In this document: positions 12,001 through 63,116 of the stretch, piece by piece
How the letters are laid out: the number at the start of each line of letters is the position of its first letter
Position numbering within the stretch: the stretch's first letter is position 1
DNA from: Bilabrum cf. latius
Taxonomy: Eukaryota
Direction: 5' to 3'
DNA: 64,000 nucleotides
Assembly (NCBI GenBank): GCA_965178125.1
Contig: OZ237762.1
Coordinates: 310,001-374,000, forward strand
The notes under the pieces: model-generated
Seen by the model: the letters and a program-made list of their open reading frames with translations, nothing else
Database searches by the model: none
Told to the model about the DNA's origin: nothing
Made by a program: the position numbers and the translations under genes

Positions 12001-12078
12001 CAAGCCAGACGGCTTCGCGCCAGGAGGCACTGTCGACTTTGCTCCCAACCTTCTCGGCTTTCGTTGCCTTGCCTCCAT
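6037..12078 (-). CDS. ~2013-aa low-complexity repeat protein (KAPPKAGK and AEQEAEAAAKAK arrays), function unknown
   Basis: Six track ORFs share one frame and are separated only by 12 TAGs (11725, 11671, 11296, 11293, 9967, 9961, 9862, 8104, 8098, 7981, 7078, 6091). The first other stop is TGA at 6037-6039. ATG at 12078 (MEARQRKP) is the inferred start. Confidence 0.8.
8617..9307 (-). repeat. 36-bp coding tandem repeat, ~19 copies (AEQEAEAAAKAK)
   Basis: Near-identical GGCCTTGGCTGCAGCCTCAGCYTCCTGCTCTGCCTT units; one unit carries a 6-bp insertion. Confidence 0.95.
9308..9760 (-). repeat. 36-bp coding tandem repeat, ~12 copies (ASGSKAPPKAGK)
   Basis: Direct reading of the repeated units. Confidence 0.95.
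10101..10224 (-). repeat. 42-bp coding tandem repeat, ~3 copies (DESQLDQDSPPGVA)
   Basis: CCACACCGGGTGGTGAATCCTGATCCAGTTGCGACTCGTC repeated three times. Confidence 0.95.
10405..11262 (-). repeat. Second, more degenerate block of the 36-bp KAPPK repeat, ~24 copies
   Basis: Direct reading of the repeated units. Confidence 0.95.
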
Positions 12079-12286
12079 ACCAGACAATAAAAGCTTCAAA
12101 AGGTTTCTTGTCCTATGGAAATGGAAGCCTGATCCGGTCGCGATGCTGGGGCGAAGCGAGCGCGACGCCGCAAAAAGCCACGGAATTGCGGAACATAGCT
12201 CATCACACCAACAGAGGACCAAGCAAGCAAAGCACCGGGTCCCAGCCGCAATGGAGGCACCACTGCGCGGAACGTGTAATATCGAT

Positions 12287-15200
12287 TCATTGGGGAACCA
12301 TATGCTGCAGCGCATGCCTCCGGTCGAGCAGCAGGCGCCGGGCGGCATCGCTCCGCACCTCGCCCCCCTTGCCGGTGGCACCCACCGGCGCCGCACTCGC
12401 GGTTACAACCGCCCTGGCTGCCCGGAGCGCCGCCTTTGCGTCGCCCAGAACCGCCGCCCCAGCCGCTGCCTCCCCGGTTGCAACCGCACCCACGTCAGCC
12501 ACACCCACCTCCCTCCCCACCAGGTGCAGCGCACGCCGCCGCACAAGTCTCGCACGATGCAGCAGGCCACTCCCGATCCCGATCCCGATCCCACTAGTGT
12601 CTCCGCTCGAGTCACCATACTGCTGTTCCCCGGAGCCAGAGGGCGTTTCCTCACCGGACAAAAAGGGCTCCGCGCTACGCAGATCCACGGAACGCATAGG
12701 CGCCGCGCAATCTGCGGAACCGATGAGCGACTCGGCGGCATGTCTCGCAGCCCGAGCAGCCGCCAGGCACTCGGCGTGGTGATGGGCCGCAGCGGCCCTC
12801 GCCGAACGTTCAGTGGCAGTCGTGGACGACCCGAAGATGCCCCCAGACGCCACCAGGGGAAGCAGTAGCGCCCTCGCCGAACGTTCACTAGATCGGGCCG
12901 CCGCGAACCGAAGCGTGTCCGTTGCGATGCTGGCAATCGCTCGACCGACCGAGGCTCTAGATTCTGGCTCCGAGTCGGCCGCCACCTCGGCCCCTTTGCC
13001 GCCCGCGAGCAGCGCCAGCTGAGCAGCGGCAGTGCCGGGGAGAGGCACCGTGTCCATGGCCACCGCTCTGGTTGCAGCGCACTGCAGCGCGCGCAGGCAC
13101 CCGCTCCGGTACGCCCTTTCCTCTGGCCTCCTGGGCTGGCAGTACTGGCTCTGCTCTTCTACGCAGCCCAGCACTGCAGTGCACTGCGCCAGAGCGTCCA
13201 GCACCTTCAAGCTGGCCTCCTCTGGGGCCAAGGGAACTGCGGCCACATTTGGAGACGCCGATGATGCCGATGATTTGGGGGCTGAGGCAGTACCAGAAGT
13301 TTCACTTCCTCCTGGCTTTGATCCGGAAGCCCCTGCTCCTGCTGTTACTGCTGCCTGCGGCTGCAAGCCGTCAGCTGCATCCGCCCCGGGCCCCACCGCT
13401 CCCGCCACCCAAGGCGCTGCCTGCAGACGGACCAGCGTGCAGACAATCGCCTCATCTCCCTCTCTTCCCAGAGAACAAGCCTAGGGGCCTTCAATGCTAC
13501 CCGAGGATACCGCAGGGCCACCCATTCCCGTGTTCCCTGTCTGCTTCCCTGCCTTGTTCTCCGGCTCCTCCCCCTGCAGCGCCACTCGGCACGCTTGCTC
13601 AATACAGCTCTTGACAGACTCCAGCAGCTGCCGGGCGTCGGGTGATGACCACGCACCACCATGCAATGCATCCAAGTCACCCTCTTCACTGGCGCCTTCT
13701 GCCGCAGCAAGGTGGAGCATGAGTTGGATCGCCCTGCCCTGCGACCACCTGTCCCCACTCCCGGTGCTGTCCGCTGAGCAGGTCCCTAGCATTCGTCCAT
13801 CGAGCGCGCCTCGTTGCCGCAGCAACCTCCAGCAAATTGCACCCACCTGTGCCGCAGCTGACCCAGCCTCCACCACGGCAGCATACGCACGAAACACGGC
13901 CCCGCACATCTCCGCCTTGAATCGGCCCCCCGGCGCCAACGGAGTCGTCGCCTTGGCCAGGCCCTGGGCCTCCTCTGCATCGTGTGCAGCGGGTTCCAGC
14001 AGCGCTGCAGCTGCCTCCACGGCTGCCCCCGCGCGCCCCTTGAGCACCACGCCGTCGGGGGCCTGGCCCCTGGTCCGCTCGCTGACCTGGCCGCCCGCCA
14101 CCGCGGCACACGCGTGCACAACCCCGTCAACAGCGAGGCGAGCATCGGCGGCCCGGCCCGCGAGGCACAGGACCTCGCGCAGCCACGCGACAGGGAACAA
14201 GCCAGCCCGTGCCTTTGCGACCATCTCGAGGGAGCACCTGCTTTCTTGTTCCCTGGCTGACCGGAGAAGCTCCCTCGCTTCATCCCGTACAGCCTCCGCC
14301 AAGGAACACAAAGACCTCATCCCCGCGCGGCCGGTGGTCGGCATGCCAGCAGCAGAAGCGTACCCAGCCCGTGTCGCGATGGGCCCGGGCAACAGAGGAC
14401 CTTCACTCTCCGAATGGCCCGACCCGCTGCCAGCACCTGCAGCTGCTGCTCCTTTCGCGGACCCGACCGCGACACTCGTCACAGTATCTGCCTTGAAATC
14501 GTCCTCCCCCACTGCGCCCATGGCCCACCAACCCGGCCATTTCCTCACCGGCGACCCCTTGCCCTTGCCCTTGCCTTGGCCTTTAGCCTTGGTATGATGA
14601 CCCCCGGTTCCTCGCCCGGAACTAAGGGGGCCTTGGTCAGCAGCACCGGCTGGCATCTCCACGTCTGACGCGTCCAGCCACTCGTCACACAGCGACTCCA
14701 TGCCCTTCTACACCCCGATGGCTTGGTCCCCTTCGCCACCCGCCTCGGTCCCGCTGTTCCTTGCGGACATCGCGGTGGCCTGAAGACCTGCCCACCGCCA
14801 GCGCCACACGCACATCTCCCAGGCACACTTGGCCACCGCCCCGGTGGTTGCAACCACGGCGGGCCCCGCGTGCAGCTGCATGGCCACGTCGGCCCCCAGC
14901 CGCAAGGAGCGGGGATCCAGCGCGCCAGCGGGGCCCATCACCCGGGCACCTGGGATTCGTTTCGCTGCCGCGCGCGTGGCCCGCACGAGGGCCACTTCCA
15001 GGGGCTTCAATTGTTCCCTCAAATCCCGGGCGCCCTGGCCGGCCCTCCGCACGTGCCCCCCCCGGCTTAGAGCGAGCAGGGCGGTGGCGGCCGTCCTGAG
15101 GCCCTGCACCTGGCGGATGACGTGCGGCCTGGACAAATCCACTCGAAGAAACTGGTGGAGGGCCTGTTCCATGAGGCGGGGGCGCACCGGCACCAGCGCC

Positions 15201-15787: not shown

Positions 15788-17931
15788 ATGAGCAATCTTG
15801 CCTTGCTCGTAACAAGGAGTCTTTCTTTCTTGCCTTAGGAGCCGCAGCCGCTGTGTCTTCCGCCCGTGCCAGCTGGTTTTGTGGACGCGGCTTGCGTCGC
15901 ATCGTGCGCAGCGTTCATGCCCAGAGCGTTCGAGCCGGCTGGAAAGGCATACCATGTTGCGATGCTCGCGAAAGCTCGTGCGTTAGTGGGGAAAGCCAGC
16001 GGCAGCTCGGAGCCCAGTGGGCCAGCTTCCGGGGCTGGAGCTGACAACCCGAGACAACAGGTCTCGCGTGTCAAGGCGCCCAAGATCAAGGTGCCTACTC
16101 TGGAGCAGTGCGAGGAGGGTAATTTGTATGATATTCTTGGCCTGGGCGAGCAGGGTTGCGATGCGACCGAAGAGGAGATTCGCAGAAATTGTAAGAAACG
16201 TTTCGAACTGCAGTTGTCGTTGGAAGCTGCGTTTTTGCCCACTTGAGCGCGTCGCAGCAAATACCGCGTCGAAGTTATTTGGCACCCTAATGTTGATCAA
16301 GAATCTCCGCAGACCGCAAATTGATTCTCTTGATTCATCCTGACAAGGCGGGAGGCGGCTCTACGCCGAAAAAGGGTCGCAGCACCGACGACGATACGGA
16401 CCCGCGGTTTACCGCCGTGAGCAAGGCTTGGGACACGCTAAGTAACCCAGTTAAGCGTCGCGAATACGACTCACAGTTCGAGTTCGATGAAGACATCCCC
16501 TCGGGCAAGGAATCGCTCAAGACCGACGAGGCTTTCTTCGAGCTGTACGGACCCGTGTTTCGCCGCAATGCTCGCTTCAGCAAGACGACCCCAGTGCCTC
16601 GCCTGGGTGATGCAAGCACTACAATCGAAAAGGTACTCGCGTTCTACGATTTCTGGTACCGGTTCCAGTCCTGGCGCGAGATGCAGGGCGATGACGAGCA
16701 CAACCTGGACGAGGCCGACAACCGAGAGGAGCGAAGGTGGATGCAGCAGCAGAATGAGAAGCAGAGGCGCAAGCTCAGAGCGGCGGAAGGCAAGCGGGTG
16801 CTCCTGCTCGTGAAGCGAGCGCGCGCCAACGACCCCAGGGTGCAGCGGTACGAGGCGCAGCAAAAGGCCGACCAGGAAGCTGCCAAGGCCGCCAAGAAGG
16901 CCGAGGCAGCGGCAAAGGCAAAGGCGGAAGCCGATGCTAAGGCCGTTCAGGAAGAGGCCGCCAAGGTAGCAAAGGAGCAGGCAAAGGCCTCCAAGAAGGC
17001 GATGAAGGAGGCCAAGAGGATCGCCAGGAAGCGAGCGAGGTTCGCCCTCAAGCCGCTCCTAGCCCAGGGAACAATCGCGAGCTGCGACGTGGACGAATGG
17101 ATCCAGGCATTCACGGACATTGGGGAACTCTCGGCAGTGGCCGACAGGATGGGCAGCCCAGCCGACCCTGACAAGGCGAGCAAGGACCCCGAGGCACCTG
17201 CTCGGCTGGACCTGGAGCAGGTGCTCCGCGTGTACATGCAGGAGCTGGAGGGCATGAAGAAGGAGGAGGCGGCTGCGGTGGAGAGGCAGAAGGAGCGCAT
17301 CCAGGCGGCCGCGGGGGGTGCGGCAGGTGCTGGCAAGAGGGGGGGCGCGCAGATGCCTTGGACCGCGCAGGAGCTTGCGCTGCTCGCTAAGGGGGTGGTC
17401 AAGTTCCCCGCGGGGACCAAGGCCAGGTGGCAGCTCATTGCCGAGTACGTCAACTCGGCGAGGCTGCCATCGCATACCCGGAACAAGGAGGAGTGCATCG
17501 CGCGGGCGATGAGTGTGACGAGTGCCGACAAGGCCGCGCCAGTGGCCGTACCCGCCGCCGCGGCTGCCGCCCCCAAGGAGGAGGAGGAGAAGGCGGGCAG
17601 CTCTAGCGGTGCAGCCACCGGTGGTGCGGCGGCTGCGGGGGCCAAGTCGAAGGGCGCAGATGGCGGGTCACCAGGCAAGGGGAAGGGCGGTAAGGGCAAG
17701 TCGGGGGACAAGAAGAAGAAGGAGAAAGAGGGGGCGGGCGTGTGGACGAGCGAGCAGCAGAAGGCCATGCTGGCGGCCCTGAAGAAGTATCCCGCGACGA
17801 TGGACAAGAACGAGCGGTGGGCCTCGATCGCAGGCGAGGTGGAGGGCAAGAGCAAGAAGGACTGCTTCGCGAGGTTTAAGGAAATCAGGGCAGAGCTCAA
17901 GAAGCAGAGGGAAGGAAAGGCTGCCAAGTAA
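15788..17931 (+). CDS. DNAJC2: DnaJ homolog subfamily C member 2 (zuotin/MPP11) with two SANT/Myb domains; intron 16191-16312
   Basis: EPAG motif, J domain LYDILGL..RRNY|RKLILLIHPDK, FYDFWYRFQSWRE zuotin domain, and WT..ELALL / WT.EQQK SANT repeats. Ends TAA. The start needs TAG 15836 as sense or a 30-nt intron, so it is uncertain. Confidence 0.93.
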
Positions 17932-18023: not shown

Positions 18024-18193
18024 GGTAGTTTCGAGTGGTAGCGAATAGTTTCACAGCAAAAATCAGATGAAGCCGGCGTGCTTGCAAAACCGAGTAGCGC
18101 CCAGCTTGTTCGGCTATTGGAAATTTCGGGGCGCTAATCCATTGATCAAATCCTTTCAAACGAGCTTCGCGCGCCAAAAGCCTCCCAGCGAGA

Positions 18194-19507
18194 ATGGCGG
18201 CAGCAGGTTACACCCATCTTCGCACCGCCTGCATGCTGGGACTGGTTGTATTGATAGCCTCTGCACCAACCACAACTCGCGGCGCAAAGATGAGCTGGAG
18301 ATGTCAAGTCTGTTAGGACTCAGTGAAAGCGGTCCGGGCTATCGTCGAGGATCTCGTAGCGCCCACATCATCGAACAGCGAAAAGTCGGACGCGGCTTCG
18401 CTGCTGCCGCAGTACGGCTGCTCACAGTTTCAGGGCCCCATGCGTCAGCTCTGCCAAGCAATGCGATAGAATTTCATAGATGACTCATCGCGGGCGCTGC
18501 AGCTGCAGCAGGCTGTTCTGGACAACGGTGTATTCCCGGAAAACGAGGCTCCGCATGCCGAAACAAACTTGAAGGAAGACCGCCTGAGCGAAATCGTCAG
18601 CGGAATCAGCGCCAGGCATCCCGCCCGTGCATACCACATTTGCCACAAGGCCGGCGAGTGCGCGGAGCGGCCTCACACGGACTGCGCCAAGTAGCTCATG
18701 GCACCGAGCTGCTCGCGGCCGGGCAACTGCGGGCGAGCGAGCGCCGAGTGCTCGCCCCGGTGCCAGGTGTGCGCATGGCTGGTGCGCACGTGGCCCAAGT
18801 TCATGCCGGATACTCTGTGCGGGGACCAGGTCGCGCTGCAAGTGGAGACCCAGGGAGGGCAAGGCGGAGGCGGAGGCGACGAGCGGAAGGGACTCGGGTT
18901 CGTGCAGGAGCAGGCTGCAAGCGGCAGCGGCAGTGGCGGCGAGAGCGAGAGCGGGGGAGGATCTAGCGCAGATGGTCCGAAGGGGACGGGTGCATAGGGC
19001 GGGGGCAAAGGAACCACAGGAGGAAAGGGTGCCTAGGGCGGGGGCAAAGGAACCACAGGAGGAAAGGGTGCCTAGGGCGGAGGGGCTGCAGCTGACCCTG
19101 CCTCCAGCCAGAAGGCGTACGACGACTGGTCCACAAGCGCGGTACGGGAGGCTGGGATGGGATCCCCCCCTTTGGCCACCAGGGATTTCAGCATCACGGG
19201 GTTGGGTGGCAAAAGTCAGAGCCCAGGGGCGGGCAAGTTGGCGCAGCACTGCCACCACATGGCGTGGGCGAGCATGGACCTCCCCTCTGCGAGCGGGATG
19301 GTGCTGGGGCAGTCGGCTTCGCTGGGACCCTGGCCGTGGAGCTCGGGCATGGTGTGCGCGTGCATGGGGAGGTGTGCCTACGACTCCATGGATGGGTTGG
19401 CCGTGGAGGAGGCGTGCCCTTCCGCGCTGGCCACGCTTGGGAGGCAGCTGCAGAAGATCAGGGAGCCGGATTCGGCGGTGAGAGGAATGGAGCCAGAGGG
19501 AGGCTAA
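18194..19507 (+). CDS. Secreted Cys-rich protein with two saposin-B-like cysteine patterns
   Basis: Signal-like MAAAGY..MLGLVVLIAS, then CQVC*DSVKAV..GC..QLC..ICHKAGEC and CQVCAWLV..LC..HC..VCACMGRC. Six in-frame TAGs (18314, 18467, 18692, 18995, 19034, 19073). Ends TAA. Not visible as one ORF under the standard code. Confidence 0.7.
18988..19080 (+). repeat. 39-bp coding tandem repeat (GA*GGGKGTTGGK), ~2.4 copies, each containing an in-frame TAG
   Basis: GGGTGCMTAGGGCGGGGGCAAAGGAACCACAGGAGGAAA units. Confidence 0.9.
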
Positions 19508-19661
19508 TTTGTTAAGGTGCGATCCAAGGAGTAAGGTAAAGAACCTGACTACAATGCAGAACAATCAAAAGTGTGCACGATTTTCAATTTTCAATTTTGG
19601 AAGAAGAAGATAATCAAAGTGGCTCCATAGATATATTCTACTCACAGTGACGTCTACTAGT

Positions 19662-21554
19662 ATGCAGGCGTTCAACAAGGAAGGCAGAGAAATTCCGTGG
19701 AGATAGGGAATGTATGTGTACCCAGAGATGGCTTATTTTGATGAGCTTTCGCCCATCCAGCAGGAGGATTTGGTTGATCTTAACGTAAGCATTGTCTTCG
19801 ATTCAACCTTAAAGCATGAAGATGTTTGCCGACGGCTAGAATGGATACAATATATGGCATCTATTAGTGTTGATTGTGCTGACGAGCCGGAAACCAAGAC
19901 TCTTGAAGCCATTCTGCAAAGATTGGCTGAGCAAACGAGCACCACAACTAGGATTGAGCTGAGCGAGGCGGCAATCCGTCTATTGAGCACCAAGAAAGCA
20001 ATGCGTACTTTCGCATCAGTTCTACGAAAGAATCCAGTTTTAGATATGCTGTGCCTGCCGAGCGGACCGCCAGACGGGTCAGAATGGGATGTGGACGAGC
20101 ACTTGCTTGAGGCTGTAGGAGCGTGCACCTAGTTGAGACAAGTGCGGGTCTACGATGTATGCAGCCTCAACCCATATCAAGAGACGATCAGTAGAACCCT
20201 GGGTAGCGTTGAGTTTGTTGGATCACTTCACGTAACTGGAAGAAGAGCAGGGGCCTTTGCAGCAAGAGTCCTGCAGTGGAGCGGTAGTCTCGAGAGCATC
20301 TTCGTTAGCCATGGATAGGAACCGCGAAGCATTCAGAACGACAAAATCTTCTGGAGTGCAGTGCCACGATGCTTGACTCTGAAACGCATTCGGTGTAGCC
20401 CCCCGCTGTCAGCGTCTTCGGCAGTTGAGGAGATGCTGTCGAGTGCCCTTAGGCAACATGCTGGGGTGGAGGAGTTGCTGCTAGATGATGACCAGCAAGG
20501 AGCGGCAAAGCAGAGCGTGCAATGCTTTTAGGCCATCACAAAGGGACTTGCTATGAATCCGTGCAGCAGTCTACGAGTGCTACGAGTCTCGGCCGAATCT
20601 GTCGCAAGCGGCGACGAGGAGTACCTCCGGCTGCTTCTGCAGCAGGATTTGCACTGCCTGAGAGTGCTTGATCTGCACAACGTCCAGATGGACGGTTTCA
20701 ATATGGTGCCACTGTTTGAAGGCCTACAAGCTCCTCGCTGCCAGCTCGAAACGCTGCGGCTGTGCAGGGTGAAGATTTCGAGGCCTTCGGCAGCCGCTCT
20801 GCAGGACGCGCTTCGAATCAACCGCAAACTCAAGAAACTCGCGATTGTCGAGTGCGATGTTGATGGAGATAGTGTAGACCAAATTTGCGCTGGGATGACC
20901 GAGAACTTGGGTTTGGAGCAGCTCATTTGCGTGGGAACAGGGTCACGTGGATGGGGGGGTCGCCTGGGCCCAGCGCTGCGGAAGAACGACACATTGCGAA
21001 GGCTAGTACTGCCAGGGTTTATAAAAGCAGCGAGCTACGCTGACAGTCTGCGGGACATACTTGTAGAGAACATGGGACTAGAGCAAATCGAAGGTGAAGC
21101 CTTTGAAGCTTATTAGGACGATTCTGTGCAGTACCTGCGTCACAGGCCTGGGCTACGCTACGTCTCGATGAGCGGTGATGATGGTTTCAGCTTGGATCCT
21201 GGCGACTGGACTCGTGCTCACACTGCGATATCAGGCCTTCAATGCTTGCAGATTGCCAAGTTATGGGCCACAAGGCCCGATGATACTGACTGGTACCAGG
21301 CGGAGCAAGAGCCATGGCGTTCTGAGGATGAGGACGCCGACCCCGTCATCAAGAACACAGCTCCTGGGCTTACCATTCGATTCATGGACATTGAAAATAA
21401 AGAATTGGAGTACATCGGTGAGGTTTCTCACCCCCGTGCCAAGGTGGTGGCAACTGCCCGCAAGTGGCTGGCGCAGCACCCCAGGCCGGAGAGAGCCGCC
21501 TCCCTCCTCCGACTGCTGGCCAACGAGAAGGCCGCGGAACTAGACGCAGCATGA
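19662..21554 (+). CDS. RNI-like leucine-rich-repeat protein, ~630 aa, apparently intronless
   Basis: LRVLDLHN, LETLRL, ALRINRKLKKLAI, ENLGLEQL and LRKNDTLRRLVL motifs. One frame with five TAGs (19704, 20130, 20316, 20529, 21114). Ends TGA. Confidence 0.8.
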
Positions 21555-22129
21555 GTCTGCAAGTACGCCGCAGCTGCACTCAAGCAGCATGGGGCGACAA
21601 GGAGCCCGAGGACTGCCTCCTCGTGGCCTCTGCCGTGGTGGACGGCATGCGGGACCGCAAGCTGGACGAGGACCCAGAGGTCGAGCAGTTCCCTGACGAG
21701 TGCGCCGTGGTGGATTTCCTGCCCCCGAGCGCCACGGCTGGGTCCGGTCTGTGGCAGGCTGCGGAGGAGATTGTGACGGGCAGAGCGAACATCACTCGGG
21801 CCGGGCCGGGAGGCGAGTGGGCTGGTGCGGTGCATCGGTGCACGCAGGTGCTGCAGATGGAGGGCAGGAGGAGGAGGGGCAGGCTGGCCCTGTGGAGGCG
21901 GGCCGTGGCTGTGAAGAGAGATGCGGCGAGGGTGTTCGGGGCCGCGAGCAATGGCAGGCCCCTGGAGCTGAGCAAGCGGCTGCGGCTGGGTAAGCTGGCG
22001 GGCGAGCCCTCGACCAGAGGGCAGCTGTGCGTCGATGGGCAGCTTCGGACGGTGTCTGCCATGGAAGCGGCATGCCTCGGCGGGCACGGTAACTGCGAAG
22101 AAGTGCTGGAGCAAGTGGAATGGAGTTAA
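21551..22129 (+). CDS. 192-aa ORF whose ATG overlaps the LRR gene stop (ATGA); possibly the frameshifted C-terminus of that gene
   Basis: Open frame with GC-rich third positions typical of this genome's genes. Ends TAA. No recognisable domain. Confidence 0.45.
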   Translation: MSLQVRRSCTQAAWGDKEPEDCLLVASAVVDGMRDRKLDEDPEVEQFPDECAVVDFLPPSATAGSGLWQAAEEIVTGRANITRAGPGGEWAGAVHRCTQVLQMEGRRRRGRLALWRRAVAVKRDAARVFGAASNGRPLELSKRLRLGKLAGEPSTRGQLCVDGQLRTVSAMEAACLGGHGNCEEVLEQVEWS

Positions 22130-24226: not shown

Positions 24227-27200
24227 TCACGCCAGGGTTGACGATAACACATTGCACGCATGGACGCTTGCCCTTGACTGTCCAGAGTCACGCAACTGCT
24301 CGAGGCGAGGAATGGCCCCTGCGTCCCTGACACAGTGCAGCAGGTCCTCGGATAGTAGTGCAATGCCTGCAAGCATTTCAACGGCAAGGTCTCTCACGTC
24401 CTCTTTGGCTGATCCAAGCAACACCACGAGTGCCGGTAGTACACCCGAGTCTACGACACTTTGACAGCCATTTTCCGACATGAGCTGCACCTTCTGTAAA
24501 GCTTGCATGGCATACCACACCACATTGCACTTTCGCGACCCCATCAGCGCCACCAGGCACGGCAGCGCGCCCGCATCCACCACAAGTTGCTTTAGCTCGT
24601 CCGGTCCGCACACGATCCCCTACAGAGCCGCTGCCCCCATCTCGGCCTCTCTGCCCTTAGCGGATCCCAGCAGCCCTACCAGTCCCGGTGCCGCCCCAGC
24701 ATCCGCCACCTGCTATTTTCGCTCGTCTGAGCCATCGGCGATGTTGCCAATAGCATCTGCTGCTATCTATGCCTCCTTGCCTTCGCTCGAACCAAGCAGC
24801 GCAACCAGTCCCGGCAACGCGCCTGCATCCACCACTTGCTTAACATGATCCTCTGTACCCGCGGTAATACTCCGCAAGGCCCTTGCGCACAGTTCTCGCC
24901 CCATACCCCGGTCTGATCCCAGCAGCGCCACCAAGCCCGGCACCGCTCCAGCTTCCACCACATGCTGCTTGCACTCGACCGAATTTACAGCGATATTGGC
25001 CAAGGTTCCGGCTCCTTGCTCTGCTTCCTTGCCCTTGTCCGATCCAAGCAGTGCCACCAGTCCCGGTAACGCTCCAGCATTCACTACATCTTGCTTTCGC
25101 TCATCCGATCCAACGGCGATATTTCGCAGAACCCCTGCTCCTAGCTCGGCCTCCATGCCCTTGCCCGACCCAAGCATTGCTACTAGACGCAGCGTTGCGC
25201 CAGCATCCACCACTTGCCGCTTTCGCTCATCAGATCCAATCACAATCAGTCGCAGTGCACCTGCAGCATGCTCAGCTTCTCTACCTTTGTCCGAACCCAG
25301 CAGCGACACTAGATGAGGCAAAGCTCCCGCTCTGAGAACCTAGTCCTTTCTCTCCTGCGACCTACAAACGATGTTCCGCAGAACCTCAGCAGCATATTCT
25401 GCCTACGCTCCCTTGCTCATTCCCAGCAGCGCCACCAAGCCGGGCAATGCGCCAGCATCCACGACTTCCTGCCGTCTCCTGTTGGACTCGTTAACGATGT
25501 AGTATAATGCCTTGGCTCCAAGCTCGGCTTCCGTGCCCCTGCTCGAACCAAGCAGCGCCACCAAGCCGGGCAACGCACCAGCATCTACCACTTGCTTCTT
25601 TTGCTCCTCTGTTCCCGCGGCAATGTCCCGCAGAAGCTCAGCTGCAAATTCTCGTTCCCTACCTTCACGCGATCCCAGCAGCGCCACCAAGCCCGGCAGT
25701 ACCCCTGTATCCACCACTTGCTGCCGGCTCTCGTTGGAATCGTTGACGAAACAACGCAGAGCCCCCACCGCAGCCTCGACCACACTGTTCTTGTCTGACC
25801 TCAACAGCCCAACCAGCTTTGGGAGAGAGCCTAGATCTATCAGTGTCTTGCAGATCCCGCCCGACTTGGATGCTGTTGCTGATATAGCTAGCGCTGCGCA
25901 CTCTGCATCGCTTGCTCTGGTCGATGACAGCATGCCAACAAGTTGATGCACAGCGCCCGACAGGACCAAGTGGTCAACGAACTCCTCACCATCAGCCTGT
26001 ACTGCATGCCACAAAGCTAGGGCAGCCTAATCAGCCGCAGGTTCTGCGCACCTGCCCGCCATGTAGAAGTTGAGACGCTGGAGCTGCCTTGCATCCTCCA
26101 ATAGCATCTTCTGCAAGGCATGCCGGACGCTTGCTATCATGGGTTGCACCGCTGAGCCTACACCAGCCCAACCTGCACCGAACTCCACATGCAGTAGCAT
26201 CAGCGCCCTGTACACCCCTGTCCAGTTCGCGCCACGCATCATCGAACTGAGGAGCTGGTGCAGTTCGCTGACAGCATCTCCGTACATGGGCCCTTCTCCA
26301 GCCAAAGGAGCTAGTAAAGGCCTCACCTATGCTTCCACTGACTCGGAGCTGTGCTCGAGCGGTCGGCTGGCCTCGGTATCTGCCTGGCTCGCCTTGTCCC
26401 AGCACGGCAGACGTTCCAGTTCTTGCTGCAGGGTGGTGCACGCATCCCGCACCCCTGTTCTCCTCTGTTCCTCGCACTGCAGCAGCCCCTCCACTAGATC
26501 AATGAACCACGGAGGACACCCCGCAAGTCGGTCGCCTCGTGCCACTGCCACACCTTTCTCAAGTCGAGCCAATACGGTTCTTGCGCCACCTGCTGGTACA
26601 CGCCTCCCGCCACGCAGCTCCAGGGGATATGCATCCCCGAATGGGTGCTACCCTCCCGTGGCAAGCTCGTGCAGCAGCACGCCCAGCGCCCAAGAAGCTT
26701 GCTTGCCGAGGGGAACAATTGCATCATCGTCACCTGCCGCTCCCTAGCTCCACCCGTCTAGCACCTCGGGGGCCAGGTGGGCCTGGTTGCCCCAAGCGGC
26801 ACGATCTGTAGACCTCAGCTCCCCGTACGTGACCAGGTTTAGAGCCCTGCCAACTGACGTCTCTGTCCTAGTGGTGGTCGCCTCTGTCCCTGGGCCTGAG
26901 TGCTCGGCCAGCGGGTGCGTCTGTGCAGCTGCTTCAGCTGCCCCCTTGGCCTCCTCTTTGCCCCGTGCCGCAGCGGCTCCTGGCACTTGCGTCTTGGACG
27001 CTTCCAAACACGTATCACCTGTATCTACTTGGAACGCATAGTCAAGACCAGAGAGCACCACCCGCCCTGAGCCATCTGGATCCCCCTTCGAGTCCCACTT
27101 AAGGCTGTCCAGGCTCAGATTGAGGTGGACGACCCCATGCTGCAGCAGGTGGTGCACACCGTCCGCTACATCCTTCGACAGTTGAACCAGCACATCATCT

Positions 27201-27835
27201 GGTAAAGATCCTGCAGCACCTTCTTCAACGCTTGCTAGGTGATCGCGCAGCGTTTGCTCTGGGAGCTCTAGGCCCAACACTTTGGCGATTGGTCGAGGCG
27301 CAAAAGCTTGCGGTTCGGCTGGCATTTCAGGGCGACTGCAGTCATCGTCCGCAAAGTTCATCCAAGCAGCGGGTAATTGCACAAGCATCCAGGCGGGCAA
27401 TATCGCTTCGCCCTCAAAAATGAGTCGCACGATATTCCGATGAGTGGGCAGGCTAGAAATCAAATCAGTCTGTCGATATCCACCCTTTTTCGGCTCCAGC
27501 GATGTCAAAGGATCAGTGCGATTCATGATTGCCTTAACCATTATGTGTATCGGGCTAAAAGCTACCGTTGGTAGGTCGGGCTCAGCTCCTTCAACTTGCC
27601 GGCCAAACTCGGCACGGAAGACACAGGCTTGCTCGTCCAAGCCAAGAAGTGAGGAACCCGATGCAGGCTTGCGGCAACGATCAATACAAGACATAGCAGT
27701 TGTGCTGTCTTCACTTGAACTACTCGAGCTCGTCATGGAGGGCTTATCACCCACTGGCACTTGAAGAGGCCTGGAGCCAACGCCACTGCAAGCCGCACCA
27801 GCCCCGCTGTGAGCATTGCTAGACTCCATTTCCAT
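24227..27835 (-). CDS. ~1202-aa PINK1-like pseudokinase fused to ~13-14 armadillo repeats
   Basis: HRNIVRL, TLRDHL, GVHHLLQHGVVHLNL, GNQAHLAPEV and WALGVLLHELATGG*HPF, then 42-aa VVDAGALPGLVALLGS repeats. One frame with nine TAGs. Ends TGA. Confidence 0.85.
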
Positions 27836-28062
27836 TACAACAGAGATTAAACCGCGAGTTTCGATATAAGTGTTGCGGGACTAGTGACAGCCTTGCGATC
27901 TGATGATCCAGACCTGCTCGTTCTCAAGCTCTGCTGCCAGTGATGAGTGATGACCAACACTTGACAATGCAATGCAACGTGATGCAACCCAGTGGACGCA
28001 GATAATCTGATAGTACGCTACTATTATCAAGCGTCACTCAGAGGTTGCCCTGCGTCGTCCGC

Positions 28063-41492: not shown

Positions 41493-41669
41493 GCCAAGGG
41501 TGAGGCCAAGTGAGCGATCCTGGCTGGTGCTGCACGATCCCGGGTGTGACATGCGTGCTGAAAGGATGCGATAGAGTGCAAGTTTCCATTTTGTTTGTTT
41601 CGAAGATCCATCGCCGGGCAGAGGCGAGAGATCACCGAGCCGCGATCAAAGCCCAAGCTGCCTGGCTCT
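41155..41669 (+). repeat. 515-bp direct repeat, right copy
   Basis: Matches 33601-34115 and contains the functional stop of the 41646 gene. Confidence 0.95.
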
Positions 41670-44600
41670 GAACCAGAAGGCGGCCGTAGTGGCTGCCACC
41701 ACCACGAAGCAGATGATCATGGTCCTCTCCGCGTAGAAAGCCGACCACTGCATCTCCTTCCTCTGCCTCCTCCTCTCCGCCTTCTTCTGCGCTTTCTTCG
41801 AGGATCTCCTCCTCTTCATTCTCTCCACGCCGTCTGCCTCCAGCCGAGGCGATATCACCCTCCTGCCCCTGAAGTCAGACTCGCCAGACACTGCGCTGCT
41901 GGCGGTGGCAGTGGCACCAGCCCTCTCGCCACCAGACGAAGCCTGACCCGCCCCCCTGTTGTTCCCTGACGCATTGATGGGTCGCCTCGCTCCCGCTGAC
42001 ACGTCTCTCTCGTACTGGTTCCGCCTGTACACTGGCCCTTTGATCGCCAGCATGTGCCTCATTGCGTGGTACCCGTCAGAGGCACGCCTCCCTCTGCCCT
42101 TGCCTCCCCCTCTGCCCGTGCCCGTGCCCGTGCGAGCGCCCCCTCTCTGGGCACCGCCACCCCCGGGACCCTCCTTTGTTCCCTGGTTAGCCTCGGTGTC
42201 CTCCAGCGGATCGCTATCTGGTCCCCCCGCCAGGCCACCTGCCACGTGCCGCACCGGGCTGAGTTCCCCAGAGAACAGCAGCCCGGCTTGCGCGACCCGG
42301 CCTCCTGCAAGCCTCCTCGCCCGGTTGTCCACCACTGCAGGCACGCCGTCATCGAGCACCCCCTGAAGGAAATCGTCCTCCCTGGCCAGCCCATGGGCGG
42401 CATGTCCAGGCACGAATTCGTCCTCCTCGTCGCTGTGCGCCTCATAGCCCGGGATGAAGGGAACGTTCGCCACCGAGTTCCTCCGGCCGATGCTGGAGGT
42501 GCTGGAGATGTACCGGCTGATCCTGCTGTCCCCTGAGTCGCTCCTGCCCTCCTCGCTGTCTGCCGCAATGTGGCCAGAGATCCCTGTGCTGGCTTGCACC
42601 GCATCATGGCCTTGCATCCTCCTCCCCCCTGCCCTGTCCTGCACCCGACCCTTTCCACCTCCTGGTGTCACCCCTGTCGCCTGCTCGGGCCGATGGTCGA
42701 GCCTGCCCGCGCTGCCACTGCCGCTCGGCATGATCTTGCCACTGCCGTACGCAGACACCCTACTCTGTCGTGTGCGACCGGCCCATCTCTACTTGTGGCT
42801 GGGTGAACTGGGCGCTTGTGGCACCTGCACACCGGCAGCTTCTGCAAGCGTTTCTGCAGCGTGCTGCTCCGTCGCTGCTGCCGCCATGCTGCCCTGCCCA
42901 TTTGCCTCAAGCACCGGGCTGCTCCCCGGTTCCACCAGCGGTGCCGTCACTTCTACTCGCATGGGTGGCGGGAGCCCGCCCATCTCGCTGTTGAGGGCAG
43001 GGGCCTCGAAGGTCGCTGGACCACCGTGACCAGTAGCACTCGAATCGTGCGACACGTCCTGCGTATCATCCGCAGCAATGCTGCTTGACCCGTCCTAGTT
43101 CTTACCCGACCCCTGAGCCTGAGTCTGCTGGCCCCTGCTCGATATGAGCTCCGCCTCCCCCACGACGGCTCCACCAGCCCCGGCTGCCGAGCCACCAGAG
43201 GCCAAGAGGCTGGCACTGCTAGCCCTGCCCTTGAACCCCATACGAGGCGGCGCATCAACGCCGCCCTCCTCCAGGTCCTCGCCAGCGCTGCGCTGCGAGT
43301 CGCTGGAGGACCCACTTGAGCTGTCGCTGTTCCTGGCACGGTCTGGACTCTGCATCAGCAGGCCAGAGGCAACGCCCATGTGGAACGAGCGCTTCCTCGA
43401 AACGTCATTAGGGCCGCCTTGCAGCTCGTATCGTGGCATGCGGTGCTCCCCGTCGCGAGCTGTCTGTAGCAGCGAGCTGCTGTCACCATCAGCAGTCACC
43501 TCCACTTCCTTCTGCGAGTCGCGCTGCGAATTTGAGGCACCGCTGGACCCGCGGGAGCGACCCGTGTCCTTGTTCTCAGACGTGCCGTCGCTCGAGTCCA
43601 AGATGCCGTCCCTTGTGGCCGTATTCGCAGTGATAACGGCAGCCGTGTCGGTGCGCTTGTTGGAGTTCCTATTGGCTTCAATCAGGTCCTGGTTCACGAG
43701 CTGCTGAGAGAGTGACAAGCTCTAGGACACGCGGCGCACGTGCTAAGCGCTGTAGTCGGCCCCGTGGTGCGCCCTGGGTTGGGTAGACCCCAGCACCCGC
43801 TTGCTCCTCTGCCGCTCCTGGCTCATGCTTTCCGCGCGAGAGCGGGAGCTGCGACCCACGCTGCCGCTGAGGAAGTGCCTGCTGCCGTGGCTTGCCGAGG
43901 ACTTGCTCCGATTCCGCTATTCCCCCAGGTTGGCCATGGACACCACGGCGCCCGCGTCTTCGCTCTGTTTCCCGTGGGGTGGGGTCCCTCCGGCATCTCC
44001 GGCGCTGGCGTTTCCAGAGGGCAACACCGCACTGACCCGCTGACCTCCTGGACCGCTGGCGATTGAATGCCGACTCAAAGACCTCGATCGATCCCTCCTC
44101 TCCTGGTTGATGTGACGTGCGGACTCCCGCATGTCCTTGGCCTCTGCATGCGTTGCCAGTCGCATGTGGGCCTGGTGCACGAACCGAACCATCACGAGTG
44201 CCATCTTGCCGCCCCACCGCAGGCGAGCGTACGCGTGGTGCCTCCGAGTGATGATGTAACCCACACCCGAGGCCACGATGGTGATGATGAAGATGAGAAG
44301 GAAACCCGTCCCGAAAAGCATGGACTGCAGCGAGTCCTGCTGCACCCCAATGCCAAGGTACCAGGCCCTCATCTTGCCGCTGAGCGAGTCCTGCTCGTCC
44401 TGGATGTCGTCGAATGACGCCGACAGCACCCTCGAACGGATGGCACCGATCCCAAACATGAGCTCCTCACCCAAAAAGGAAGCAGCCACGCAAGCAGTGG
44501 CGAGGATCTCTTGCAGCACGGCCGATTCGACCTTCTTGGCTGTGGCCTGTGCCTGCCAGAGCGGTTGCACGGGCCACATCACGAACCTCGAGTTGCATTG

Positions 44601-46260
44601 CGTGATTGCCTGCCACAAGTGCACGTAGAGCCGCGTCTCGATAAAGATGATGCGGCCCATCTTGACCAGCGCGGTGAAGCCGAACGCAAGCGAAAACGGG
44701 TCCAGCTGCACGAACGCCACGGCAAGGAACACCCGCGAAAGGAACCCGAACAGGAACTTTGCCGGTTCAGAAGCCACCGGGCTGACGGTAGACGCTGCGG
44801 CCAAGATATCGATGGCATACTGCGTCACACCCAGGACGCCGAGCACGAACGAGATGACCGCCATCTGAAAGATCGGGCTGTCTCGCGTGATGCTGAGCCC
44901 AAAGAAGAGAAACTCTCCGAGCGCGGGCGCGAATGCATCCAGCATCACCACGAGCACCACAACTGCCCCGGGGTCTAGCCGCCGCCGGCCTGCCTCTCTT
45001 CTTGCGTAGTCCCAGAAGATGACCACTCCGGCGAACAATGTTGCCAGCGCACCCATCGGCACCAGAAGAGCCTCGACACCCGACTGGAACGCGATCTAAC
45101 CCAGGGGGATGGCCAGTGCGAAGATCCATGCGGTGATGGACATTAGGCCGGGAGACCACACGGGATTGTGCCTCGCGCAGCACTGGTCATGATGGTTGCA
45201 ATACTCCCGGGCAGGGACGCAGCAGGCGTCGCAGCAGGTGAGGGGGCTGCAGTACCCGCAGCAGATCTTGTTCGTACGAATCCACCGCTGGCAGCTGCCA
45301 CAGACGAGGTAGGCTTCCTGATTTGCCACTTCAGCTACACGGATGTGTGCCTACACCTCGTGCTGCTGTGCCAGCATGACAACCCGCTAATAGTCCTCGT
45401 CCTGCTGCCTGACAGGGCCGTATCCGAGCCTGTCCTGTGGCACAGCCACGGGCCTGGGCACGGGCCGATCGCCACCACTTGTGCCAACCTTGACGGGGGG
45501 CGGCGGCATGGCAACCGCAGCAGGAGTTGCGTTCTGTGTTCCCTCGCCTGGGTGCTGCCTCGATGCCACGTCTTCTGCTTGCGGTGCCTCGCCGTTCTCG
45601 GCAGCCTGTCTCGCGATGACATCGGAATTCTTGGCGGTGTGAATACGCTTAACCTTCGGCATGTCCACGTCTGGGGTATTCCGGCCGTCGGCACTGCCAT
45701 TGCCGTCTCTGTCATCGTCCTGCGCGCCACCCACGTCAATGGTCCGCTCCATCGACCGCTTGCGGTTCATCCCACGGTCCCCGCCGGGACTAGGGTGGAA
45801 GTTGCCGCTCTGGACCAGCTGACCAGGCGAGGCGCCTGATGCCATACCCCCAGCTGCATCGCCTTCCGTGCGTCTTGGGCTCGTGAAGGTGGGCTCCGAT
45901 TCGGTGTTGCCGGTCATGCCTGTGATCACCTTGCCGCTTCCCAGCGAGCTAGTGGAGCTCTAGTGGTGCACATTCACCATGCTCGCAGATTGCCTCGGCG
46001 TGAAATCGTAGCTGGGGTGCTACTCGCCCGCAGGACGGGGCCCTCTACTAGGTGACCTCCCGTCCCCTGATCGGAGCAGCATTTCCTAGCCGTCTGCCGC
46101 CAAGCCGGCAGTGTCGTGGCTGGGGTGCGTCACCTCGCGCATCGCCAGCGTGCGGCTGAGTCCGCTGTTCGAGGAGTTCGTGTGGGCCGAGCTGGAGGTG
46201 CTGGCGGGCTGGCTGCCTCCACCACCGTCAATGGGTGCATCGACCTGCAGCGCGAATGGG

Positions 46261-46312
<52 letters not shown>

Positions 46313-47493
46313 AAGGGCTTGCTTGGGGAGAGCTATCCTGCCCTCTGTCTGGCTGCGGCGTGGACGCTAGTGGCAGCGAAAGCGAGGCAACGGCTCCTTC
46401 CTGCGTGGCTGCACTGGTGCCACCAGTGGACGTCTTCTTGGGAGCTGCACTCGCAGGCTGCAGGGAGTCTGACCCTGTGGATGGCTGCTTGCGAGGAGCA
46501 TCGATGCGAAGCGCACTCGAGCTGCTTCGGTCACCAGCGGCTGGGCGGGCGGCGGTGGGGCTGCCTGCAGGGTGCTCCTTCCCGTCGGCCTCTACTTCTG
46601 CCTCGCTAAACATCCTGTCCACGCGCTTGCCGTCGCCTGTTTCGAACCAACCGCCAGCTGGGGTGTTTGTGGGGTTCGCGGTCGGTGCGGCCAACATGGA
46701 GGCAGCAGCAGCAGCGCCGGCGGTACGGCTGGCACTGGCACTGCTGTCCTGCTTTGACTCTCTGCGAGCCACCACTCGATGAGAGCCACCTGTCTAGTGC
46801 GAGTCTTCGGGCCTGGGCGCCCGATCGAACCCTCCTTCACTGGCAGAGTGCGCCTCGGTGGGTGGTGCATGGCTTGCAGATGTGGTCCTGGACGGGCGCG
46901 GCCCTGATTTGCTGTCTACTCCATTGGCATGAGAGGCATCAGCAGAGCTTGCGGCACTGTGAGGCTCTGCATGCAGGTGCAGCGAACCGTCGGCTTGGCC
47001 CACCGCCAGCACCGCCGCTTTAGCCATGGTCATGGGAGCGTTTGGCAATGCCGCCACCCTCGCCGAGGAGGAGGAAGGGGAGGGGCGCGCGGCAGCGATG
47101 GAGCTCCGCCGCCTGGCCTTTGCCCTGCTGATTGCTGCCAGCGCCTTGCGAGCGAGCCTGTCCCTCGTGGCCTGCGAGGCAGACTGCACCCTGGCCCTCT
47201 CGGCATCAAGGCACAGTACCTCCAGGTCGATTTCCTCCTGCAGTGTAACGGACCCGCAGCAGCACCATGTGTGCGAAGGGCTGAATGCGGGGAGCACTTC
47301 CTCCTGGAACTCGATCTGCGTGCCCTTCATGTCGTGTCTGGCCAAAGCCCGCATCACTGTCGTCACGCTCTCGCCCCCGCTGGGTGCCTTGGCAGAGGAC
47401 GCTGAGGAGAGAGCTCGTTCCCGGCGTGAGACCCCGCCGTTGGGAGGGTCAGGGATGCCTGCCGTCTGCGTTTGCGTTTGCGTTTGCGTCTGC

Positions 47494-47527
<34 letters not shown>

Positions 47528-49178
47528 GGCCTCCTCCAGTGGACGAGGAGGAGGACCCTAGCCCGGTGGGGGTCTGGCGGTCCGTGTCAGACTCTGTGAT
47601 CTTGGGGTAGGCGAGGGCGCTCTTGTGCTCCAGCTCGTGCTTCTTCGACTACAGCTGGCTCTGCCCGCCGTAGGAACCACCCGGCGGATCAGACCCATCT
47701 GGCTCTCCTGCAGGCCTGGTCCCAGCAGCCAGTTGCACCCCCCCACCCCGGGGTACACCCCCGCTGCCCCCACTCGGGGGCATTCTGGTGGAGGGGAGTC
47801 GAAGGGAGGACGAGGAGAAAGCGGCGTGCTTCCTCTGCTCAGAATCCATGTCTGCAGCTGTGGCAACGTGTGACGAGTGGTTGCGCCTGCCAGCATCACG
47901 TTCGCCGCCAGCAGCTGCTTCAGTCCCATCGTGGTGAAACGACTGCCTTCCCTTTGTTGACTGTGGCTGCCTACCGGCTGAGGCAGCATCCGCCCCGCTT
48001 GAGTTATCCAGGCTGCTCCTGCTCCTGGACCTGGATCCGTTGCCATTGCTATTTTCCATGCCCTAGACATCGCCTGCTCCACTGGTGGAGTGGCGGCGCC
48101 GGCGGCGAGTCGCCGCGGCGCCAGTCCCGCTAGCGCCTGCCTTTAGTTCCGCACCGCTGCTTGCGCTTCCGCTGCGGCTGCGTCCCCCGCTGCGATTGGA
48201 CCGCACGCTGCGAGACGATTCGCCGCGCTTTCCACTGGCAGACCGTCCTCCGCCTCGCGACGGACTGGACTGTCCCAAATCTTGTTCGTCGAAACGACGG
48301 CTCACTCCCATGTACTCATAAAAGCGCCCAGATGTGCTTCTTCGATTGTCGTTGCCTGAGCGCGGGCTTTCTGCGCCCTTCGCGAATTGCGGCGAATCGA
48401 TGAGGGTTCTCGCGGCTCGGTGCAACAGTCGGCGTGTGTGCAGCAGCCTGCGGCGATACGCGTAATGCCTCGTCGCAAATAATACCCACGGGATACCAAC
48501 CTAAAGAATCAGCACGGCGCCAATAAAGAACGCCGCTCGGAGCCAGAAGAAGGCCGGTATGGACCGCATTATTTCGCTCCGCTCGGTCAATGTCACATTG
48601 CCGGGTGCCGCCTGCAGGCTCGCAGCTCGAATGCCTCCTCGAAACACAGAACCACCTATTGCGTATCCCCACCACATGGCAGGGGAGTAGCCCCCTCCCA
48701 TGCACGCGGCGTACCACCGAAAGGTCTGTTGCCAGTGGCTGAGCCCCTGACTGAGCCCTACCACGACCGATCTCCAGTGCTTCGTCGACTCCTGTCCGGA
48801 GTATCCTAGAGCACACATACTACCAACCAGAAGTGCGAACGTGAGAGCAAACACAGTGTCGAACAAGCGCTAGTTAGTGACAGACGGGCACGCGAATCGA
48901 GTCCAACATCGCTTGGAACCAGCAGCACGGGGCTCATCCTCTCCATCTCCATTTCCATCGTTGATGAGGGGCTACTCATTCAAGTCCTGGCCATCTAGAC
49001 GAGTCCGCGTGCCATCTCGCATGGTATCGAGCGCGAGTGTGGGTACGTTGAGCGCTGCTTCGCCGTCATCTCCAGCTCCGGATGACCCTCGAATAGCGGC
49101 GTTTGACGGCGCGTTGTTCGCTGGTATAGCGTCTGTAGTCTGCATGTACACTTCCTCTCGCTTGGACTGTTCGTTCAT
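41646..49178 (-). CDS. ~2510-aa multi-pass membrane protein with long disordered loops and poly-Gln tracts, function unknown
   Basis: Twelve track ORFs lie in one frame; 19 in-frame TAGs and no TAA/TGA over 7.5 kb until TGA 41646. Hydrophobic clusters near 48450-48870, 44250-45150 and 41670-41720. Start inferred. Confidence 0.8.
46263..46313 (-). repeat. Coding TAG(CAG)16 poly-Gln tract
   Basis: (CTG)16 followed by CTA on the + strand, in the frame of the large gene. Confidence 0.95.
47490..47528 (-). repeat. Coding (CAG)4-TAG-(CAG)8 poly-Gln tract
   Basis: (CTG)8 CTA (CTG)4 on the + strand, in frame. Confidence 0.95.
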
Positions 49179-49816
49179 GTACACGAACCGAGGTATTCGA
49201 TCGAGTGGCGCGTGCGCATCCACAGAACGCACCAACTTACACGTAGTTCTTGTACGAGTTGGTGGACTAGCGAAAAATGCCTGCGATACTGACTGTAGAA
49301 TATGAAACAAGTGCCAAGGTAGGAGAATACCGCTGCGACTGAATCTCGTAGGCCGTCTCAGGCGGCACCGCCGGTGCTGGGTTCGCCACCCGCGCATGCT
49401 TGGTGCGTCTGTCCTGCACTGCCGTAGTTGGCAGCCAGCAGGAGATGCAGACAATTTATCAAATTTGAACGAACCTGATTGGCAGAGCCACTTCAAAAAG
49501 TGCGCCTTGGTATCCGCCCAGCGGCAAGACTAGACTCCCGAACGTTTGCTTTGGCACAAGCAAACAAAAGCCGAAGAAATCCGGTAATTTCCCGAAGACA
49601 GCCGCAAAGGTTCTCACTGTCAGATATGATAATATATTCCACTCCTGTAGACGTATAATATGGGCTGTATCAGTGGTTCAGCACATGTTGTGCGATGGTC
49701 GCTGTTGGTCGCAAGCCAGTGCGCTCGGCCAAAGGTCTGGTTTGTGTGGAAGTAACGCGTCATTATAGCTGCTCGTGGCGACCACCACCCAGCTCTTCCG
49801 TTCACTACAAATATAC

Positions 49817-62178: not shown

Positions 62179-63116
62179 TTGATGAATTTGACGCGGCCGT
62201 GTCCGGAGCAGCAGCCAGCAGATCAGGCCGTGCTGGATCCAGCAGTGCCCTGCGAGCCATGGAAGACGAATTAGACGACATTCTCGGGCTAGGCGAGGAC
62301 GAAGAGAGTCGAAATCGTGGTGATAGCAGCAGCAAGCGGCGCTCGCAATTCGCTGCAGGGGACACGCCGGAGAAGCGGCACGCAACGGATACTCGGTAGA
62401 GCGCAGGGTCTGAATTGGACGGGCACGATACTGACGATGACTTGTTCCCCGTTACTTCGAGCCCCCGGCTGCCGGCACGTGATGCGGTTCACGGCCTGGG
62501 CGGGGGCAGCACGGATGGGACTGGGAGGGGGAGGGGGGCAGTGACAAGCAGCAGCAGCAGCGGCGGCAGCAGCAGCAGTACGCAGGCAGGCGCTGGTGCT
62601 GGCGGCATGGACACGTGGGGAGACTCTGAGGCCAGAGGGGTCGGATCAATCGATCAGATGGACTCTGAACGGACGGACGGTCGCGTGCCAGGTGGCCTAG
62701 AGGACGTTGGCGGTGGCCTTGATCTCGATCTTGGCCTGCCGGGGCCCGGCGATATGCTCGCGATGGAAGCCTAGGATGACGCGCGGGCTGGCATGGAGGA
62801 GACACGGGCCTACGCGCCTTCTGGCTCCGGGTCCTCTAGGCTCGCTGCGGCGCGTGACGCGAGGCGGCAGAGGATGCGGCAGGGAGCGGGCGGGTTGGGG
62901 AACAGCGCTGGGGCGGGGCAGGTGGGCATGGACGGTGGCCTGGAGCTGGAGCTGGGGGGCGATGCCGCGGCGATGGGCAACGTGGGTGGCGCGGGGGCGG
63001 CAGGCTTCAAGTATTCTCAGGTTAGCGCTTCGGCGGGCGATGCCAGCCAGCGCCCGGGGAACAGTCAGGGCGAAGTGCCTGGCGCTGGTGCTGCTGCCAT
63101 GGACGATGGCCTTTAA
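59782..63116 (+). CDS. POLE2: DNA polymerase epsilon subunit B (Dpb2) with long low-complexity C-terminal extension; introns ~59889-60004, ~60082-60169 and 61501-61634
   Basis: SAFKMPRY, MFRDRF, VLGMITQ..IEDL..GLFTESSVVLVEG, FVLVP..DPG..LPRP, SNPCRL and QSHMCPL..PVYWEHDCALRLFPLPD. TAGs at 60009, 60199, 60247, 62397 and 62772. Ends TAA. Confidence 0.92.

Follow-up and report, generated by a model that had tools for sequence, protein, structure and literature searches.

The window, a stretch of 64,000 nucleotides of nuclear DNA (G000:C28:310001-374000), belongs to a 48.6-Mb, 111-contig assembly with a GC content of about 60%. It contains a gene for DNAJC2 (zuotin, MPP11-like), which ends in TAA, together with further long open reading frames (ORFs), some of which carry in-frame TAG codons. 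The features considered were as follows.

15962..16190, + strand: DNAJC2 exon 1; the in-frame ATG at 15962 is the inferred start, and contigs of four runs join 16190 to 16313
16191..16312, + strand: DNAJC2 intron, GT..AG, with the joint in four of four runs
16313..17931, + strand: DNAJC2 exon 2 (end of the J domain, ZHD, and two SANT domains), without an in-frame TAG or TAA before the stop
17929..17931, + strand: TAA stop of DNAJC2, from the sequence, the SANT2 alignment, and the coding score
18194..19507, + strand: cysteine-rich, secreted-type ORF with six in-frame TAG codons and TAA at 19505-19507, putatively labeled saposin-like; contigs show 0 differences over 18098-19024 and 19051-19525
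22127..22129, + strand: TAA of the 21551 ORF; weak, without a Pfam hit
24227..28033, - strand: kinase-like/ARM-repeat ORF with 10 in-frame TAG codons and a TGA end (ORF list, Pfam)
41646..49613, - strand: 2655-codon ORF with 20 in-frame TAG codons, two of them within polyglutamine runs, and a TGA end (ORF list)
63114..63116, + strand: TAA of the last POLE2 ORF; weak, behind a long low-complexity tail

The DNAJC2 ORF had Pfam support for the ZHD, the DnaJ domain, and two Myb/SANT domains. The last of these aligned to SANT2 of human DNAJC2 (2m2e), and the alignment ended seven codons before the TAA, so that the sequence-only reading, which had this gene ending in TAA shortly after its last SANT domain, was correct. 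The coding score was 0.32 before this codon and -0.46 after it. The context of the TAA, GTAATT, is donor-like. Splicing was checked over 15600-24300 in contigs of four of 14 listed public runs, none of which is on record as RNA; no joint was listed at 17928, and the sole DNAJC2 joint was the intron at 16191-16312, present in contigs of four runs. One contig continued unspliced to 17955 with 0 differences, which, at 27 letters past 17928 and thus below the 31-letter bridging rule, counts as a hint.

Among 20 long ORFs checked in the window, 4 ended in TAA and 16 in TGA; the TGA majority noticed earlier was thus confirmed, with 16 TGA ends in place of about 18. The three TAA ends that had been named besides that of DNAJC2 were all present but differ in quality, two of them being weak examples. 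The ORF ending at 19505 lies under contigs from runs that also show spliced joints, and its saposin-like identity was not borne out, no Pfam hit being found at E<=1 except one chance hit. The 21551 ORF had neither a Pfam hit nor full-length contig cover (the contig gap at 19674-21710 carries no evidential weight), and the POLE2 TAA stands behind a low-complexity tail of about 440 residues; therefore, neither represents a conserved C-terminus.

Two other observations concern the ORFs of the window. The 21551 ORF starts within ATGA (21551-21554), so that its ATG shares letters with the TGA of an upstream 646-codon ORF. Its tail matches repeats elsewhere, and the two ORFs may belong together as a single family member that has been split or frameshifted. 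On the minus strand, a 2121-codon ORF without a Pfam hit (6037-12402) contains long arrays of KAPPKAG and AEQEAEAAAKAK repeats.

Meaning of TAG and use of TAA and TGA as stops

Codon meaning was scored in paralog alignments of five families, comprising 18 dynein heavy-chain stretches plus C-termini and 38 kinase, 29 Ras-family, 15 proteasome, and 25 ubiquitin-conjugating loci, with all three stop codons translated as X and only the coding strand and best frame kept. A first alignment that included antisense and shadow-frame pairs gave spurious readings of TAA as Tyr and of TGA and was discarded. The 47,161 paralog-aligned codons included 173 TAG, 0 TAA, and 0 TGA codons, and as a control, 61 of 61 sense codons were recovered. 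The log-likelihood of TAG was 129 for Gln versus -34 for Glu. In columns conserved at 80% or more, TAG stood on Gln columns in 17 of 22 cases, CAG in 202 of 253, and CAA in 21 of 28. Among 44 conserved TAG columns, none was a Tyr or Leu column and 7 were Glu columns, a share similar to those of CAG (51/508) and CAA (10/65). TAG thus scored as Gln, and it makes up about 8% of the Gln codons (173/2118 aligned).

The Gln codon of the Rab G3 box was TAG at 8, CAG at 8, CAA at 4, and TAA at none of 20 loci, and 85 TAG codons were spread over 57 of 148 kinase Pfam matches (hand count), which also contained two TAA and three TGA codons. The eRF1 gene has one TAG at Gln44 (Gln in 108/110 homologs) and a second at the Leu69 position (Leu in 105/110 homologs); the latter counts against Gln, as do the two alignable TAG codons of Prp8, which lie on Pro (36/36) and His (35/36) columns. 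No TAG in the Prp8 alignment fell on a Gln-conserved column. Autoregulation of eRF1 through its own TAG codons was considered and dropped, the two codons fitting the genome-wide share.

The sequence-only reading held that UAG and UAA are decoupled, having seen no in-frame TAA inside any exon, and the assembly-wide counts agree on both points. If the ratio of TAA to TAG equaled that of CAA to CAG (219:1726), about 22 aligned TAA codons would be expected, versus the 0 observed. A total of 294 Pfam matches in the five families contained 4 TAA and 8 TGA codons; in the nine matches inspected, which included all four with TAA, the stop lay within a few codons of one or the other end of the match and adjoined an intron end (intronic overhang). 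Two matches with internal TGA lay outside these nine (C13:416403 and, below the cutoff, C20:1018244).

Stop usage was then counted at 39 homology-defined C-termini, namely, those of 20 Rab/Ras proteins, 17 dynein heavy chains, eRF1, and DNAJC2. These ended in TAA in 9 cases, in TGA in 30, and in TAG in none. Neither of the two findings named in advance as contradicting the sequence-only reading, internal TAA at conserved positions and conserved proteins ending at TAG, appeared in these data. The 20 prenylation motifs (CC, CxC, or CaaX; from 30 Ras-family loci) were followed directly by TGA in 16 cases, by TAA in 4, and by TAG in none; the 17 dynein ends used TGA 14 times and TAA 3 times, with tails free of TAG; and the eRF1 C-terminus reads DDFI and then TAA, as in its homologs. 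Proteasome ends (TGA in 14/14) and UQ_con ends (TGA in 16 and TAA in 3 of 19) did not count toward the 39, their tails being variable. UAA is predicted to be a minor stop, used in about one-sixth of the genes, and UGA the major one.

A self-trained coding score collapsed past 15 of 16 ORF ends in TAA and 91 of 96 in TGA, and past 7 of 47 internal TAG codons; these 112 ends (34 at a strict instead of a relaxed threshold) include intron-terminated ORFs and so do not amount to a count of stop usage. The score dropped past CAG in 2.6% of cases, versus 7/47 for TAG. Of the seven TAG codons concerned, two lie inside Rab domains, four lie in the 2655-codon ORF, and one continues into a GS repeat.

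The CUA-anticodon tRNA, eRF1, and competing explanations

A tRNA gene with a CUA anticodon, which had been predicted from the window, was found at G000:C23:907607-907679 (69.8 bits, second best of 48 matches). It was the only one found among the 63 of 780 candidates scored, with search patterns that miss intron-bearing and long-arm tRNAs. No UUA-anticodon tRNA occurred among the 48 scored matches or among 2 and 81 pattern matches, in an inventory that is incomplete; a short anticodon pattern gave 56 matches, and none of the 30 cut out contained a tRNA. The Ala, Thr, and Pro tRNAs of the same genome have A34 anticodons. Two nuclear tRNA-Ile genes (L013, C32:91173-91245, and L075, C4:952092-952164) have a GAT anticodon, which is unusual for eukaryotes.

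Compared with 20 other nuclear tRNAs, the CUA tRNA was most similar to tRNA-Tyr (50/73 identical positions), followed by tRNA-Glu (44), tRNA-Gln(CUG) (44), and tRNA-Gln(UUG) (43). With tRNA-Tyr, it has six of seven acceptor pairs in common, including C1-G72, and the same 5-base variable loop, with GUA replaced by CUA; the chance of such an acceptor match is about 0.001 per comparison and 0.03 over 20. Outside the acceptor stem it ties with all four (38 to 40), its D arm resembles those of the genome's own Gln(UUG) and Glu tRNAs, its G73 is common with Gln(UUG), and the loop residues A37 and C38 are of the Glu type. A Tyr origin of this tRNA is a lead and is taken as no more because the nuclear tRNAs compared did not include those for Trp, His, Leu, and Ser(CGA). 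Eukaryotic Tyr identity requires A73 and G34, and a bacterial Lys amber tRNA inserted Gln in part after its A73 was changed to G (PMC9976931). The CUA tRNA has G73 and C34, so both eukaryotic Tyr determinants are gone. In the E. coli Tyr amber tRNA, the A73-to-G change reportedly has an outcome similar to that in the Lys tRNA.

A search with PF03463 returned one eRF1 (G000:C35, L005) and one Pelota. The motifs that the sequence-only reading had singled out (GTS, NIKS, and YxCxxxF) are kept in this eRF1, with G31-T32-S33, E55, T58, NIKS, S70, Y125, C127, and F131 intact; the Iotanema-specific change in GTS, T32G, is absent. Substitutions occur around the motifs. Six of them, which cluster in the N domain, were found in 0 of 110 homologs (G29A, N30D, I35V, S60V, E107Q, and K130H), and three were rare (R28K in 2/110, L69Q in 3/110, and N129S in 11/110); residues K28-A29-D30 rest on an exon 1/2 junction inferred from GT/AG. 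The nearest homolog, P0031, its sister in the eRF1 tree, has L69Q, L84Q, and N129S in common with it and is also changed at residue 30. N129 has been proposed as a reader of third-position G, L69A raises UAG readthrough slightly more, and N30A has no effect in yeast (PMC4381064); yeast N126S, which corresponds to N129S, was enriched in a screen for UAG readthrough (PMC12440015). Since L69Q is also present in the plant-type eRF1 8ip8 and N129S in 11/110 homologs, neither is diagnostic, and L69Q as the sole cause was rejected for its presence in 8ip8. With the protein altered near these motifs, eRF1 has probably lost recognition of UAG.

As a whole, the data are very probably best explained by a nuclear code in which UAG would be Gln everywhere and UAA and UGA would terminate, through the CUA tRNA and an altered eRF1. 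The tRNA from G000:C23:907607-907679, charged with Gln, would pair with UAG and not with UAA, and UAA, without a UUA tRNA, would be left to eRF1. In the single eRF1, affinity for a third-position G in the stop codon would be largely gone, owing to changes around, and not in, GTS, NIKS, and YxCxxxF, for which N129S/K130H, S60V, and G29A/N30D, with L69Q, are the best candidates.

The same code could be produced by a different mechanism if eRF1 were still omnipotent and an abundant CUA tRNA outcompeted it at UAG. The intact eRF1 residues listed above, with Thr32 (lost in Iotanema) kept, and the small share of TAG among Gln codons fit such competition, but a single CUA tRNA gene was found, as many as 20 TAG codons occur in long genes and two in eRF1 itself, and the six N-domain substitutions are unmatched in the homologs; this mechanism is considered unlikely, though worth serious weight. 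Another reading, to which the Tyr-type acceptor, the Glu-type loop, and the overall identity of the CUA tRNA might point, makes UAG a sense codon for Tyr, Glu, or a mixture of amino acids. None of the 44 conserved TAG columns is Tyr, the share of Glu columns is like that of CAG and CAA, and G73 and C34 remove two Tyr determinants (PMC9976931), which leaves little probability for this reading. An explanation of the TAG codons by assembly errors or by mRNA editing has close to negligible probability: nothing was found in its favor, spliced-joint contigs of an independent run match TAG stretches with 0 differences, TAG also stands at orthologous sites in a divergent relative, and there is a dedicated CUA tRNA.

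Two further alternatives concern the code itself. In a context-dependent code of the Condylostoma or Blastocrithidia type, UAG would be Gln inside genes but, in some of them, also a stop close to the poly(A) tail. A UQ_con gene (L197), in its low-complexity tail, and the window ORF at 32994-33938 each have a TAG five codons ahead of TGA, and 7/47 TAG codons show a downstream score drop, as such a code might predict. It is nevertheless improbable, as TAG is absent from the 39 termini (a small sample for rare terminal UAG), TAA is absent internally, and TAG density does not fall toward stops (12 in 4480 codons over the last 40 positions versus 11 in 8960 further upstream). An ordinary coupled code would make UAA and UAG both Gln, with TAA merely rare in a GC-rich genome and with genes running on or splicing at it. 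TAA is indeed rare at 60% GC, the DNAJC2 TAA is donor-like, 6 of 16 automatic TAA ends follow G, and the TAA of L200 is ambiguous. Yet internal TAA is missing against the expectation of about 22, TAA follows directly on CC, CxC, and CaaX motifs, dynein ends, and the eRF1 DDFI, and no UUA tRNA was found among the pattern matches; UAA as a sense codon, the feature of table 6, was not seen in the aligned codons, Pfam matches, or termini. The coupled code thus has only a minute probability and, as far as sequences can decide, is refuted by the termini.

Lineage, relatives, and known codes

The trees place the organism as a long-branch bicosoecid-like stramenopile, apparently a marine-type single-celled flagellate. 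The eRF1 tree of 111 sequences (FastTree) grouped it, on a long branch, with Bicosoecida sp. CB-2014 in a clade of 10 tips with a support of 0.998, and in the mitochondrial cox1 tree it fell in a clade with Cafeteria (support, 0.817; FastTree), with 75% identity to that cluster; cox1 had no match in phage records. In the Prp8 tree it was sister (1.0) to P0123/P0241, next to oomycetes and ochrophytes. The mitogenome (G000:C111, L081-L084; 38.4 kb, 24% GC) has UGA as Trp with a UCA tRNA and TAA stops, and UGA is likewise Trp in Cafileria mitochondria (PMC6723347). Two codons are read differently in the nucleus and in the mitochondrion. The 18S genes of the rDNA array on C12 (L139) measure 1700 nt, which is short, and diverge at the 5' end. 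A second 18S gene on a 17.9-kb contig (L138, G000:C95:6099-7900), unlike those of the array and presumably diatom-like, is probably contamination or prey DNA.

A metagenome scan for a TAG-bearing Rab motif yielded 93 loci, 43 of which had a complete Cys-motif end. As a control, in-frame TAA also occurred in 37 of these 43 Rab ORFs, which shows that the approach readily reveals a coupled code. Two near-identical loci (99.98%), L286 and L331, represent a syntenic relative with about 70% nucleotide identity, whose PH-kinase ORF (677 codons) contains four TAG codons and no TAA. In the alignment with L331, two orthologous sites have TAG in both sequences and a third pairs CAA with TAG; no TAA stop was seen in either of the two loci. 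The in-frame TAG code is thus, as judged from these orthologs, shared beyond one strain. Three other metagenomic Rab loci (L260, L324, and L273) carry TAG, but no TAA, in frame with Rab and are too short for a code call. A further metagenomic locus (L301, 1-4450) is gene-dense, intron-free, and 34% GC; its three same-strand ORFs (dioxygenase-like, 811-codon, and Rab) contain 16 in-frame TAG codons and no TAA, and all end in TGA. It looks like a giant virus with only UAG as Gln.

UAA and UAG nearly always change meaning together. How a eukaryotic eRF1 might drop UAG yet keep UAA becomes directly testable in this genome, which combines the code with a CUA tRNA and one eRF1 carrying few candidate substitutions; the question also bears on amber-suppression engineering. 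Annotation with the standard code would truncate many genes, such as the 57/148 kinase matches with TAG, and such truncation may hide these flagellates in protein databases.

UAG as Gln with UAA and UGA as stops is a rare split, known from a few unrelated protists, so the code itself is not new; the literature searched, consisting of abstracts and the papers cited here, contained no bicosoecid or other stramenopile nuclear case. It may be the first nonstandard nuclear code of a stramenopile, reached by a new route in which a Tyr-derived amber tRNA turned to Gln (G73 and a Gln-type D arm) and eRF1 lost third-position G with Thr32 intact, a possibility that is offered tentatively. On the same tentative footing, flagellates of this kind could also be hosts for any giant viruses with TAG as Gln and TAA as a stop. 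In coupled UAR=Gln codes (NCBI table 6, many ciliates), UAG is likewise read as Gln through a CUA tRNA, but UAA is also Gln, whereas here UAA is never internal. The rhizarian exLh, the TARA phyllopharyngeans (UAG=Leu), Scotinosphaera (UAG=Ser), and the PL0344 ciliate (UAA=Lys and UAG=Glu; PMC10553269) assign another amino acid. Those of their suppressor tRNAs that have been found are similar to the cognate isotype, in contrast to the one described here, which is closest to tRNA-Tyr. The ciliates Hartmannula sinica, Trochilia petrani, and Protocruzia tuzeti have the same code (PMC11687900) but prefer UAA as the stop, which here is in the minority at about 60% GC; a suppressor tRNA is reported as not detected in H. 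sinica or T. petrani (PMC11687900). Iotanema spirale, from a different supergroup, has the same codon table (a reading of NCBI table 15), with UAG as Gln and UAA and UGA as stops (PMC5304391, PMC9161772). In that organism, eRF1 carries T32G, UAA is the main stop, and the CUA tRNA is described as predicted (PMC5304391), whereas here Thr32 is intact, UGA dominates, and the tRNA gene was found. By its sequences, the present genome is a new, independent member of this rare UAG=Gln group, set apart by UGA as the main stop, an intact Thr32, and an odd amber tRNA.
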